Made by a program: the position numbers and the translations under genes. Below, piece after piece: positions 8,544 through 42,339 of a DNA stretch of 64,000 nucleotides. Positions within the stretch are counted from its first letter, which is position 1, and each line of letters begins with the position of its first letter. The stretch comes from Octopus sinensis. Lineage: Eukaryota. The notes beneath the pieces were generated by a model, which was not told the DNA's origin, did not search any database, and was given only the letters and a program-made list of their open reading frames with translations. The stretch spans positions 8,928,001-8,992,000 of the forward strand of contig NC_043000.1 in assembly GCF_006345805.1 (NCBI RefSeq), read 5' to 3'.

Positions 8544-8582
8544 AAAGCATACTGGTTTCGTGAATTTACTAATCATTGCTTT
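8544..8582 (-). ncRNA. Decayed minimal type-I hammerhead ribozyme
   Basis: Minus strand AAAGCA-aTGATtA-GTAAATTCAC-GAAAC-CA-GTA^TGCTTT: 6-bp stem I, GAAA and GUA triplet present; two substitutions in CUGAUGA. Confidence 0.5.
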
Positions 8583-8734
8583 CAATGCACACCGATTAAT
8601 GAACGGTGTCAGGTCTACTAGTCCGTGAGTAAAATGATTATGTGTAAGGGAGGTAACTGTTATAAATGACATCTCCGCAAATCATTTTCCCGTGAATTAT
8701 TTGTTCCGTATATATATATATATATATATATATT

Positions 8735-9048
8735 TTTACTGGTTTCAGTGATTTGACTGTAGCCATACTGGAGTACCGTCTTCAGGGGCTTTAGTCAAAC
8801 CCAAGCATTTTTTTAAAGTTTAGTACTTATTCTATCGGTCATTCTCGCCGAACCGCCAAGTTACGAGGACCCAAACACACCAACACAGGTTTTCAAGCGC
8901 TGATGGGGTGGGGGACCAAGTTTCCATCAACCAAATCGACGCACAGGGCTTTTTATTGGCCCGAGGCTATAGCAGAAGACACTTGCTGTGGGACTGAACC
9001 CAGAACCATGTTGTTGAGAAGCAAGCTCCTTACCACACAGCCATGCCT
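8735..9048 (-). mobile_element. SINE family B, internally deleted
   Basis: Reverse-complement similarity to family B copies. Confidence 0.8.
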
Positions 9049-10019
9049 GTATGTATGTATGTATGTATGTATGTATGTATGTATGTATGTATGTATGTAT
9101 GTATGTATATATATATGTATATATATATATATATATATATATATATACATATATATATATATATACATACTATATACATACATATATATACTATATATAT
9201 ATATATATATATATATATATATAAGTATATATAAGGCGCAAATATTTATATAGTGAGAAGAAAGAGAGAGAGAGAGAGAGAGAGAAGAAGAAGAAGAAGA
9301 AGAAGAGAAGAAGAAGAAGAAGAAGAAGAAGAAGAAGAAGAAGAAGAGAAGAAGAAGAGAAGAAGAAGAAGAAGAAGCACCTATGCCAATAACACCTGTC
9401 TGTTACTTTTATTTATCCACATCTGAGTGGATACATGGCAAATATGACCTCCATGGTGTTCGAATTTGGAATGCAAAAACCGCCCTATGATGTTGATATA
9501 ATTAATAAATACCGATTTCAAGCTGAAGCAAATGACCACACACAATAGAGTACAGAGGGCTTCCAGTTGAATATACTGATCCCAGTGATTTTTTTATATT
9601 GTTATATTTAACCAACAGAAGTTACAAAATGACTCTAAGCCCGAAATTCTTATGCGCCAGCTACATATATGTATGTAAAATTTGTCCTTGCTTTATCAAC
9701 CTCAAATACAGAAAGACACATTCGACTTTGGAAAGACTTGAACCGACAACATAAAAGTTTATAAGAATATCAAATCAAAACGTTGTCAAAGCATTTCTCA
9801 GGTTGGAACAAATGTTTGTTGTTTTCCTTTCTTTGTTTTTATTTTCATACTAATTTTCCCCATTCATGTCAGTGCGTCACTTTCAACCATTCCGAAATAG
9901 AATTAAATATTGTAACTTGCATTCAATACTGTAACTTATGTGATGTCTCACTCGACCAATTCTGTCACTTCACCATTTCTAATAAACGTATTCCTAATAA
10001 CGGTTTCTAATGAAATCTC

Positions 10020-10580
10020 AAGGCCAGCAATGTTGAGGAGAGGGTTTCGAGATCAGTACCAGATCGCCATGTTTATTATTGATTTCAAGGGGATGAAAGG
10101 CAAAGTTCAACAGCGGGATCTGAACTCAATGCTTAAGGGGCTGAAAGATAGGGGGTTTTTTTCCGACGCTCTGGCGATTCCGCCATCTCTCATCCCTAAA
10201 AAGTATCCACTTAACAACTCTTTCTATTATAGGCCCTGAAATTTTGGAGGAAAAGTATTGTCGATTTCCTTGGTGGCATTTGAACTCAGAACGTAAAGAG
10301 CCAAAAGATATACCGCTTTGCATTTTTTTTCAGGGGTGGTAATGATTCTACCAGCTCACCAACTTCTATGGCACCAAATTTTGGCACTAGGCCAGCAATG
10401 TTAGGAGGAGGGGCTTTTCGATTACATTGACTCCAGTACTTGTCTGGTGCTTTATTTCATCGTCCCGAAAAGATGAATGCAAAGTTGGTCCTGGCAGGAT
10501 ATGAACTCAGAACGTGTAAAAAAACAATTAGTGAGTGAAATGCTGATGTCCTTAACGTGTCTGCCAGCTCGTCACCTTTC
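10020..10580 (-). mobile_element. Three diverged tandem SINE family A copies
   Basis: Three repeats of AGGCC...AAAG..GAACTCA..TGCCAGCTC-type blocks. Confidence 0.7.
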
Positions 10581-11450
10581 AAACGTAACTTAAATAACCT
10601 CATTGTTTTTATATTATCATAATGATGAGCGTATTACAATTTTATTGTCCATCTTTAGTCAAGTGGAAAAACCAGTACCACTGTTGATGATCTGTCTTGT
10701 GGAGGAGACGGTTTAGAATTCCATTCAGACCAGTTCACTCTTGATATTTGCTACTTTAATTGCGGTTCTGACATCGAAAAACAAAGTCATTGTTGCGTTG
10801 CCTCATCAATTTCCGATAGATTCGTCCTCGTAACGCTGTAGAATTTATATTTATTACAAATACAACAGATATAGATTAAAGCAATTTCTTGTTCATTCAT
10901 CCTTCGATTCATTTTTGTAAATCCATTATGCGAAGTATTTCCTGAAAGCGAAGGGAATGAGAGATGTTGGTTTTAATATGATTATGTGATTAGTAACAAG
11001 TAAAAAGTACTACAGAGATGTATGAATTGTTGCTGTCCGACGTAGCTTGGCAGGGCGAAAGATTTTACTGTTTATATATGTACGTACATATATGTATTAT
11101 GTATGTATATATGTATGTATGTACGTGTGTTTGTATGTGTGCATATATATATATTATATATAATATATATATATATATATATATATGGGAGTAGTGAAGT
11201 TAGACAGATAGATAGAGCATACATAGTTATAGAAACTCACACTTATATATATATGTATATACAAATGTTCGTTTGTATATACACAAACATTTAGTATGTA
11301 TGTATACACCCACATATATATATGACATTGTAAAACTATACATATACATATATGCATGTGTGGTTGTATGTGTATAAATGATTATATATGCGTGTGTATC
11401 GTTGGCGATTTTCTTTCTCCGTCTTCCCTTCCTTGGACCTTTGCTTTTTA

Positions 11451-11490
11451 TTTATTCCTGACGAAGAGCTCCGCTCGAAACGTTAAGTCC
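11451..11490 (+). ncRNA. Hammerhead-like motif, stem I not recognisable
   Basis: CTGACGA (11458-64), A, GAGC-TCC-GCTC hairpin, GAAACGTT; sits in a ~190-bp pyrimidine-rich unit between TA-rich tracts. Confidence 0.45.
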
Positions 11491-11693
11491 TCCTTCTTTC
11501 TTTCCTTTCCTGAGCGTCCAATAACACTATATTTGTTCGACGTCCTCGCGTTGCTGTGTTTTCTCTTTGTTCATGTTTGGATTTTTACTGCATATATATG
11601 TGTGTGTATACATATTATACATACATACATACATACATACATACACACACACACACACACACATATATATATATATATATATATATATATATT

Positions 11694-40237: not shown

Positions 40238-40441
40238 TCCTCCTCATATCTCTGGAAATTTAAATCTACACTACGGATTAATTCATCTTTTCTGTGAAGC
40301 TAATAAGCATTTAAAAACCTGTGATAAGTATGTGCATCATCCTCCTCATATCTCTGGAAACTTAAATCTACACTACGGATTAATTCATCTTCTCTGTGAA
40401 GCTAATAAGCTTTTAGGAATCTGTGATAAGACTGTGCATCA
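40238..40441. repeat. 102-bp tandem duplication
   Basis: TCCTCCTCATATCTCTGGAAA starts at 40238 and 40340. Confidence 0.92.
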
Positions 40442-40556
40442 TCATTAAGGAACTTTGGAAATCTGTTTGCAACCTAAATCTGCCTTTAATGAAATTATCT
40501 CCAATACTTCATGAGTATAACCTCACCTACTAAGATGTTTGGAGAACTCATATGTA

Positions 40557-40647
40557 TTTTAGCTGATGAGTACGGGACACTTTTATCTGCTGCAATTTTT
40601 GCAACTTGTAATAAAGCCTGTCTTTGTATGAAACAATTGTACTAAAA
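40557..40647 (+). ncRNA. Type-I hammerhead ribozyme, canonical core
   Basis: TTTTAG-CTGATGA-GTACGGGACA..TGTCTTTGTAT-GAAAC-AATT-GTA^CTAAAA: perfect 6-bp stem I, palindromic stem III ACAATTGT, predicted cleavage after 40641. Confidence 0.88.
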
Positions 40648-40977
40648 ACTAATCCATTCTTGTTGCTTCTTTCTCGTATATATATATATATATATATATA
40701 TATATATATATATATATATATAATATATATATATATATATATATATATATATATAACTGATGTAGGATAAATTTTATCCTACATTAGTTATAAATTGAAT
40801 AGTGTTCACTTCCGGATTCTGTCACTCTGTGAAAGTTTCTAGTTCGAATCACACGTGTCTCGAGATGAGCCGAAGATTTTCTATTTTGGATATATTTGGG
40901 GTACTTAGGTCTGCTAAGGACTTGGTGTTTGCTTTTTCCATGGGTTTGAGTAAGTATTTCACTTATATCTCAAGTAT

Positions 40978-41036
40978 TTGCCGCTGAAGAGGGGAATTTT
41001 CTATGAATTAACCCCGAAATTAGACCAATACGGTGA
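40978..41036 (+). ncRNA. Type-I hammerhead ribozyme, canonical core
   Basis: TTGCCG-CTGAAGA-GGGG..CCCC-GAAA-TT-AGACC-AA-TA^CGGTGA; AUA triplet, predicted cleavage after 41030; weak stem III. Confidence 0.8.
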
Positions 41037-42291
41037 TAACGAATTTTTTAGAAATTTCTATCGGTTCGTTTCGAGACGCATAAATTATAATGGTTATTTG
41101 ACAACTTTTGTCTTTCTTTCGGCATATTTGGCATTAGAACTTTTCTTTTGTCCTTATTTTGTAAATTATATATATATATATATATATATATATATATATA
41201 TTATATATATATATATATATATATATATATATGTATATATATATATATATTTACCCTCGAAACGCGGAACAGGGCCAACTGAAGAAGGGGAATATTCCTT
41301 GTGTTGTATGTCTTGTACTCTGTTTTTTCGTTGTTTGAAAAAAAGTTCGTTTCCATGTTTTTGTTTTTATGTTTTCGTTTGTCATTGCGTTCAAGGTTTT
41401 TTTGATGTCCTGTACCAATATATATATGTATATATACATATACATGTAGGTATGTACATATATTTATGTATATATGCATATATTTATATATTATTTATAT
41501 TATATATATATATATATATATATATATATATATATATATATATATATATATATATATATATATATATATTATGTGAAATAGAAAGATGAATAATCTTGTA
41601 GGAGATTAATCAAAAATTTAACCGATACCTTAGTAGCAAAAATCACAGCAGTAAACAGCACGGTTGGAGGTACAACCATATGGCGTTGCAACCGTGCGTT
41701 GGTGCGGATAATTGAAATTAAAAGGCCGGATGGTAAACGGGCTCTTACAGTCGGCTTTTCGATGCCCCCATTGGCGGCGTTACACTTATCTGGCTTTTAA
41801 ATAGCGTTTATAAATAATACCGGCACCCATAGCCCTTGGTAACAAATTCTGAAATAGCCTTTAAGATATCTACGATTAACCACTGCAAGGGGAATTACTA
41901 CTGTAAGACAAACGGGGCTTGGTTTTTTCACAGCGGGGGGTTTCCTTGACAAGGCAGGCTTAGATGAACACACACACACATAAAACATAATATATATATA
42001 TTTTTTCTTTCTGCCACCCAACGGTTATCACGGCAGTAGCCACTGACAGCCGAACGATCAAACGCACACACGTACACAAAAAATGTTTTCTACCCCTACG
42101 CCAACACACACATATATAGAACAGTATACACACACACACGTCTCTAAGTAGATTTTTTCTCGCCCCTTATAAAACATCCAATATTCCTAAATAGTCAGAA
42201 CTTTATTCTCGGTCACAAAGAACATCTATACACCCTCACCCACATGATTGACCGATGCCTGACCCGTTGAATTCTTCAGCCACCGGTTCTC

Positions 42292-42339
42292 AACATACAC
42301 TGATAAACAGTTTCGCCATGGGCTCTTAGGAGCATAGTT
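42292..42339 (-). ncRNA. Decayed type-I hammerhead
   Basis: Minus strand AACTATGCT-CCTAAGA-GCC-CAT-GGC-GAAAC-TGTTT-ATC^AGTGTATGTT; 9-bp bulged stem I, two core substitutions. Confidence 0.55.

Follow-up and report, generated by a model that had tools for sequence, protein, structure and literature searches.

What kind of elements crowd so many hammerhead-like motifs into one short piece of octopus chromosome? The piece is the span 8544-42339 of our window, a stretch of 64,000 nt of contig NC_043000.1 of Octopus sinensis. The span is full of TA-type microsatellites, and a preliminary description had counted seven type I hammerhead ribozymes (HHRs) in it, ascribing them to Penelope-like elements (PLEs) and mostly to retrozymes, their non-coding dependants. 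For each flagged motif we searched the genome (2.72 Gb) for copies and aligned them (40-44 scored matches, 996-1,692 first-look candidates); genomic loci fetched for comparison carry "L" numbers. The sequences suggest that the span is probably a pile of PLE 3' ends in (TA)n, two of which represent truncated copies of an abundant non-coding element with a rearranged hammerhead, predicted to cleave itself through a doubly pseudoknotted four-way-junction fold. This permuted four-block motif is the most unusual item of the span and was overlooked in the preliminary description.

Two CUGANGA cores in the window, at 41279(+) and 19124(-), cannot be accommodated in any type I fold. The first lies in a truncated copy of subfamily B at 41251-41569(+), with GAAA at 41259-41262 and CUGAAGA at 41279-41285; its site block is missing. 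The second lies in a truncated copy of subfamily A at 19033-19231(-), which lacks upstream strand U1 and half of hairpin H and retains upstream strand U2 at 19197-19193, the cleavage site at 19172-19171 (decayed, with G17), GAAA at 19154-19151 and CUGAUGA at 19124-19118. The motif parts of the two copies cover 41251-41300(+) and 19113-19200(-). A reading of 41251-41300 as a type II or split type I hammerhead was dropped on finding the upstream site block. The subfamily B copy includes the element's own TA-rich tract, and what seemed a host microsatellite at 41418-41569 is partly this conserved tract, so four-block elements would seed new TA-rich sites.

In copies of the family the blocks stand in the non-circular order of cleavage site, GAAA and CUGANGA. 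A descriptor covering all six orders gave, in 255 loci, 129 CGS, 26 SGC, 6 GCS, 3 GSC, 2 SCG and 1 CSG matches, and the 26 SGC matches had a fixed spacing with differing stem sequences. A second, downstream site block (type GCS, the six matches) was rejected because it fails to track stem I in subfamilies C and D. The pattern TCGAAA-N24-27-CTGANGANG had 4,956 + 4,933 = 9,889 exact matches in the genome, versus 61 + 77 = 138 for the reversed control, and 28 of 30 loci fetched from it belonged to the family. The four-block descriptor found 44 matches in 1.38 Mb of loci, which are enriched, and none in three shuffles. Monomers of the family are 750-850 nt long and have no open reading frames (ORFs), a built-in TA-rich tract and a short tail. 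They occur in tandem, at spacings of 751, 760, 786, 789, 833, 835 and 844 nt with complete non-coding monomers between, and also as inverted pairs. Whole monomers of different subfamilies are 46-86% alike and keep the fold; copies inside one subfamily are about 87-97% alike, comparable to this genome's remnants of Naiad, a PLE clade. The labels Naiad, Hydra and Neptune are putative here and follow motifs and architecture.

Two further observations concern these copies. L293 and L294 (G000:C1:5160000-5179900) form a tandem duplication with units of 3.2-3.5 kb that include one four-block copy. A conserved AAGTAAG, similar to a 5' splice site, closes the tail in the monomers L205, L262, L267, L287, L288 and L289, and no matching acceptor was established for these tails.

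The RNA begins with U1, hairpin H and U2, which are contiguous, followed by the helix-III extension, the 3' strand of stem III, the UH site and the 3' strand of stem I. After a linker of 2-5 nt come the 3' strand of stem II, GAAA, the 5' strand of stem III, the extension, the 5' strand of stem I, CUGANGA and a last strand that pairs back to U1. In this model the strand before GAAA pairs with the upstream U2 (GAAGG:CCTTC or GAGCA:TGCTC) and the strand after A9 with U1, and no unpaired bases stand at the four junction points in the alignment, which is the pattern of a perfect four-way junction. A splice-acceptor reading of TTTTCGCAG ahead of the motif was dropped: this sequence forms the 3' side of hairpin H and changes together with the 5' side.

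The fold was evaluated on a sequence-only MAFFT alignment of 33 copies from 7 subfamilies, picked from 72 copies with upstream sequence to balance the subfamilies. Results showed that the four-way model of 24 pairs had 94.8% of cells paired, against 40-47% for slid partners, and that 15 of the 24 pairs, spread over all five helices, were changed on both sides among these related sequences. None of 500 shuffles reached the pairing score or the covariation score. Changes on both sides affected 5 of 6 pairs in stem I and 3 of 4 in stem III, and pairing fell when strands were combined across subfamilies (stem I, from 4.4 to 2.9 of 5; stem III, from 3.4 to 2.0 of 4; U2 helix, from 4.6 to 3.6 of 5). 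CUGANGA and GAAA were invariant columns of the alignment. The A15.1-U16.1 pair was kept in 32 of 33 copies, H17 (A, C or U) in all but 5 of the 72, and the G10.1-C11.1 pair closing stem II was G-C in 29 of 33, with its G coming from U2. A simple inverted duplication as the origin of the pairings was ruled out, because stems I and II cross stem III and each other. These results indicate that the four-block motif is well supported as a conserved structure, for which self-cleavage is predicted, and the four-way topology deduced from the alignment is outside the six published hammerhead permutations.

Does any coding element carry the same fold? In Craig et al. 2021 (PMC8557442), Naiads are reported to be without canonical HHRs; some entries are flagged 'HHR_core' or 'HHR_half_core', with the second half 'on either side', and the absence is taken as a sign that hammerheads are possibly dispensable or parasitic. 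Read by eye, the ends of Naiad_Obim and Naiad_Ovul showed the same four-block fold as the octopus family. The Naiad 3' motif had 483 matches in this genome and none in the control; its copies keep the four-block fold, with a U1 helix of 7 bp in L332, and in 7 of 12 loci the motif stands downstream of a Naiad reverse transcriptase (RT). Naiad remnants (L312, L348-L359) have an N-terminal GIY-YIG region upstream of the RT, and in L348 and L355 peptides matching by eye the endonuclease region of Naiad_Ovul occur 1.6-2.0 kb upstream of the RT. An N-terminal endonuclease followed by the RT, a (TA)n preference and decay in cephalopods are common to these remnants and the clade described in PMC8557442, and the half cores reported there resolve here into complete permuted hammerheads.

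The published Naiads, 54 consensus sequences in PMC8557442 File S5, were read by eye through the four CTGANGA words and 12 entry ends, a procedure that may miss motifs split by line breaks. Sixteen readings were clean (9 four-block, 7 type CSG) and two partial. The four-block fold was read in Naiad_Amil, Aacu, Anas, 2_Movir, Plae, Obim and Ovul and in two entries whose headers were unseen and whose positions point to Clytia and a crustacean; partial forms were read in Naiad_Bfor and in a decayed entry. Type CSG was read in nematode Naiads, namely Naiad-2_Nbra, 3_Nbra, Hcon and Hpol, together with three header-unseen entries. The ends of Naiad-1_Movir and Naiad_CGi in File S5 had, by eye, no hammerhead cores and words that we take to be twister-like, which would suggest that Naiads exchange one ribozyme class for another. 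On the whole we lean towards the view that Naiads kept the hammerhead and that many of them rewired it. The Naiads of ctenophores, cnidarians, acanthocephalans, crustaceans and cephalopods would then have an active four-strand hammerhead of a seventh natural topology, with A9 and G10.1 split over a four-way junction; those of nematodes would have type CSG; and about 10,000 octopus copies would lie on a non-coding dependant mobilised through circular RNA. The proposed link between the four-block family and Naiads is based on a common architecture, on insertions structured as in PLEs and on a similar divergence among copies.

The same data bear on a rival proposal, that the family has an ordinary type-SGC hammerhead whose direct stem II, formed by the strands after A9 and before GAAA, is rich in G-U pairs, and that the U1-H-U2 pairing is an alternative inhibitory, regulatory fold. 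Such a stem is formable in 94.7% of cells of the octopus non-coding family, only by way of G-U pairs, and the linker of 2-5 nt between stems I and II fits the 'typically three nucleotides' of type SGC in the accessible text of PMC10085705. Against this, Watson-Crick pairs account on average for 2.0 of the 5 in the direct helix versus 4.6 in the U2 helix, and the direct helix offers one change from one Watson-Crick pair to another (a single G-C cell) versus three covarying positions in U2. Moreover, 7 of the 9 four-block Naiads read by eye leave no way to build a direct stem II, and U2 always starts with the G that pairs with C11.1. This is the strongest argument for the four-way model, and we consider a plain SGC hammerhead unlikely.

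A second alternative is that the fold is real and no longer catalytic, and now serves the PLE reverse transcriptase-endonuclease as a signal for recognition or priming. The position of the fold is indeed that of PLE 3' cis-signals, weak in vitro cleavage of metazoan PLE hammerheads is reported by Cervera and de la Pena 2014 (PMC4209133), and a natural hammerhead with A9 unlinked from G10.1 was not found in the literature, as far as its accessible text goes. The retention of CUGANGA, GAAA, A15.1-U16.1 and H17 among subfamilies that are otherwise so far diverged speaks against a purely structural signal, and the loss of catalysis seems to us quite unlikely.

Several further points, besides the formable direct stem II, weigh against a self-cleaving four-way hammerhead shared with Naiads. 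Two of the five shuffle measures were unexceptional: 18 of 500 shuffles reached the number of pairs changed on both sides and 181 of 500 that of further pair types. The covariation counts come from related sequences and are inflated by kinship. The U1 helix covaries at just 2 of 5 positions and its cross-subfamily pairing drops only from 4.3 to 3.9. In nested minimum-energy folds of seven copies hairpin H formed in about five and the other helices rarely formed together, with a program that forms no pseudoknots. Self-cleavage is predicted from sequence and a modelled fold, and the two window copies, being truncated, would both be inactive. The cross-phylum Naiad readings were made by eye on consensus sequences, with headers unseen for 5 of the 16 clean ones and neither fold seen in 36 of the 54. 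No nucleotide homology of four-block monomers to Naiad was found outside independent insertions, and no autonomous partner of the non-coding family was found. In 149 profile matches no ORF lay upstream of the family, and a search for closer Naiad families gave 115 RT matches, many with stops; of 20 divergent loci only L332 had a four-block match, of the known Naiad type.

The four-way fold, which we prefer, suggests how the element may work. With G10.1 supplied by U2, the core would stack on the U2:11.x helix and G10.1-C11.1 would stay under the A9-G12 pair, and the U1:post-A9 helix would stack on hairpin H. The long helix III would let a monomer cut, only once the last block has been transcribed. 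A tandem transcript cut twice would set free a monomer of 750-850 nt with its ends clamped, favouring circularisation. A PLE reverse transcriptase, likely that of Naiad, may then copy past the junction and give rise to the partial tandems and inverted 5'-truncated copies that are observed.

How does this compare with known systems? Types SGC and CSG, as presented in the accessible text of Eckert et al. 2023 (PMC10085705), have in common with our motifs the site-GAAA-CUGANGA order, two pseudoknots and a short linker between stems I and II, and the nematode Naiad motifs are by eye plain CSG, with an extra stem joining I and II. Type SGC assumes there that the stem II strand comes right after CUGANGA, whereas in the model preferred here the four-block strand comes from upstream at a four-way junction. 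Non-LTR (long terminal repeat) retrozymes, in the parts available of PMC7229834 and a 2026 preprint (bioRxiv 10.64898/2026.07.22.740005), are likewise non-coding tandem monomers with one hammerhead each and are likewise proposed as PLE dependants. They have type I HHRs and about 300 nt, whereas the four-block family has monomers more than twice as long, PLE-style inverted copies and a putative pseudoknotted ribozyme. In its accessible text the 2026 preprint mentions Naiads merely as a clade. In the portions available, PMC13725137 cites 'additional helices or alternative permutations' with PMC10085705 and PMC10162972 among its references, and PMC10162972 shows only length variants. No permuted hammerhead in Naiads was described in the literature searched, which included no subscription papers and did not extend to the supplements of PMC10085705 and the 2026 preprint, and nothing on a four-way-junction hammerhead was found in literature from 2021 onwards.

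The motifs flagged originally proved to be of several kinds. All seven sequences are present at the positions given for them and are multicopy, and six of them are hammerheads or decayed copies of hammerhead families. They exceed chance, the strict type I descriptor giving 2 matches in the window versus 0 in each of 60 local dinucleotide shuffles and the relaxed one 3 versus a shuffle mean of 0.1; the motif at 40557, whose stem II begins with a G-U pair, escapes that descriptor. A scan of the window with Rfam (E<=5) gave no hammerhead among the 150 of 152 matches listed, which were microRNA-like and lay on TA repeats.

In the motifs at 40557(+) and 40978(+) the window copies themselves are canonical type I hammerheads. 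The former (40557-40647) ends a 5'-truncated Hydra-type PLE at 38341-40676(+), with the stop of its GIY-YIG ORF at 39221 and a 3' untranslated region (UTR) of 1.3 kb. The latter (40978-41036) lies in a near-complete copy, at 40756-41166(+), of a short non-coding monomer of 468 nt that is tandem in L246 and looks retrozyme-like. The motif at 18540(-) belongs to a Hydra-type PLE 3' end at 18543-19035(-), with a GIY-YIG fragment ending at 18783 and a type I core at 18587-18581. Its family is canonical (H17 is A in 24 of 28), has an RT with a DKT motif in copy L252, and differs from the window copy, which has G17. At 11451-11490(+) a minimal type I hammerhead, with an extra A after A9 and a palindromic ACGT, occupies a non-coding unit of about 230 nt, and stem I of the window copy is broken at its first pair. 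The motifs at 18540 and 11451 are thus decayed window copies of sound families. The motif at 35515-35641(+) is a type I hammerhead with a U4C core in a Hydra-type PLE 3' end at 34908-35887(+), which has a 2.2-kb 3' UTR. This core is fixed in the family, CCGAAGA being present in 22 of 28 copies and the canonical form in one, and the endonuclease is linked in L249 and L120.

The seventh motif, at 42292-42339(-), is not a hammerhead: all 31 copies have CCTAAGA (no G5), G17 and no stem I, and no hammerhead descriptor detects it. It lies antisense inside the end of a very young Hydra-clade PLE at 41570-42536(+), which comprises an inverted 154-nt tail at 41570-41723, an ORF end at 41801 and a 3' UTR, and which has a canonical type I hammerhead of its own at 42400-42479(+) that had gone unnoticed. 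The fixed defective core rules out an antisense hammerhead at 42292 in the manner of viroid-like two-polarity systems.

Among the surrounding claims, the difference in stems between families was borne out by the copy alignments, as was the position of two motifs (18540 and 40557) after GIY-YIG ORFs. The remaining motifs had been placed in non-coding units, which holds for the 40978 and 11451 families and breaks down for 8544 and 35515, whose longer copies place them behind endonuclease ORFs. The majority of units are ends of coding PLEs that have lost their 5' part, and only the 40978 and 11451 families look non-autonomous, so the emphasis on retrozymes was misplaced. There is indeed a diverse population, with many unrelated HHR-bearing PLE families whose 3' ends adjoin (TA)n; Hydra elements with HHRs and a (TA)n target have already been described for Octopus, and the original claim was largely known. 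Seven separate type I families, mostly retrozymes and nothing more, is therefore a very improbable account, for despite the two non-coding families and the unlike stems, 42292 fails, four motifs (8544, 18540, 35515, 40557) follow PLE endonuclease ORFs and the permuted family is left unexplained.

The Hydra-type families (18540, 35515, 40557 and 42400) have a C-terminal GIY-YIG with CxxC and CxH and without CCHH in the translations inspected, and Pfam does not score these endonucleases. The distance from endonuclease to hammerhead is about 0.2, 2.2, 1.4 and 0.6 kb, respectively. DKT in place of DKG is present in L106 and L252, and the RT was not seen intact in the other two families. A CxCX5C linker occurs in L255, L249, L253 and at 38.8 kb of the window, with one cysteine alone in the L106 family. 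Hammerhead families stop at preferred points followed by TA runs, and two discrete ends are clear in the 40557 and 42400 families. The 42400 family is apparently active now, as suggested by its sequences: 16 top-score copies have 100% identity over 271 nt, and L106 holds a near-full RT-endonuclease ORF with one frameshift and DKT. In each of its five long loci, just one of the inverted arms bears a tail. In the part of PMC8557442 available, the Hydra clade has canonical HHRs and (TA)n insertion and includes Hydra-1_Obim from Octopus. It has in common with the families here a C-terminal GIY-YIG, DKT, in part the CxCX5C linker, a type I HHR, (TA)n and the one-arm-only tail, which has 154 nt here versus 30-40 there; at least four families are found here, one apparently active now and one with a fixed U4C core. 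The Hydra-type part of the span is therefore known biology.

The remaining motif, at 8544-8582(-), is a minimal type I hammerhead with an A3-U8 core inside the 3' end (8325-8656) of a Neptune-type PLE. All 28 copies aligned have A3 and U8, so that another Watson-Crick pair replaces C3-G8 throughout the family, and in the longer copies L141, L154 and L157 a C-terminal GIY-YIG stops about 200 nt upstream. When 3-8 was left free in the descriptor, 1.40 Mb of fetched loci gave A-U 13, C-G 12, U-A 4, G-C 2 and non-pairing 2, and two shuffles gave 1 and 0 matches; the A-U count is inflated by the choice of loci, and the U-A and G-C families are incidental. All four Watson-Crick forms of 3-8 are thus present among the type I families of this genome. 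U3-A8 families were seen at L025:-, L140:- and L251, and G3-C8 in two incidental matches; L248:560-610, a Neptune-type 3' end with a decayed core, may be G3-C8. In the available part of PMC4209133, U3-A8 core covariation is reported in Schistosoma PLEs, and the minimal PLE hammerheads there have in common with ours an extra nucleotide after A9, a palindromic stem III and U3-A8, to which this genome adds further 3-8 forms including A3-U8. An A3-U8 hammerhead core was not found named in our literature searches.

Other parts of the window are of more ordinary kinds. A Neptune-type GIY-YIG fragment (Pfam PF01541) lies at 22403-22816(-), with no hammerhead found downstream. Non-LTR retrotransposon fragments (RVT_1, zf-RVT) occur at 43489-46349(-), 13805-14263(-), 19353-20194(+) and 59797-60159(-), and fragments resembling DNA transposases by eye, hAT-like and Tc1/mariner-like and without a Pfam match, at 3213-3845(-) and 24124-24600(+). 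A tetraspanin-33-like gene on the minus strand has its last four coding exons at 55149-62494 and an earlier exon just past the window end; one exon in the window has 100% identity over 45 residues to an Octopus protein. The last coding exon reaches to 55149, which puts the flagged span on the downstream side of this gene.

If the four-way fold and its link to Naiads are true, ribozymes with a non-circular permutation and the backing of covariation would here be seen for the first time in the genomes of known organisms. Hammerhead architecture would be extended past the six-permutation scheme, and non-circular permutations would move from environmental RNA into animal chromosomes, as a whole class that standard descriptors and Rfam overlook. 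If the motif cleaves, ribozyme processing would look like a general requirement of PLEs.

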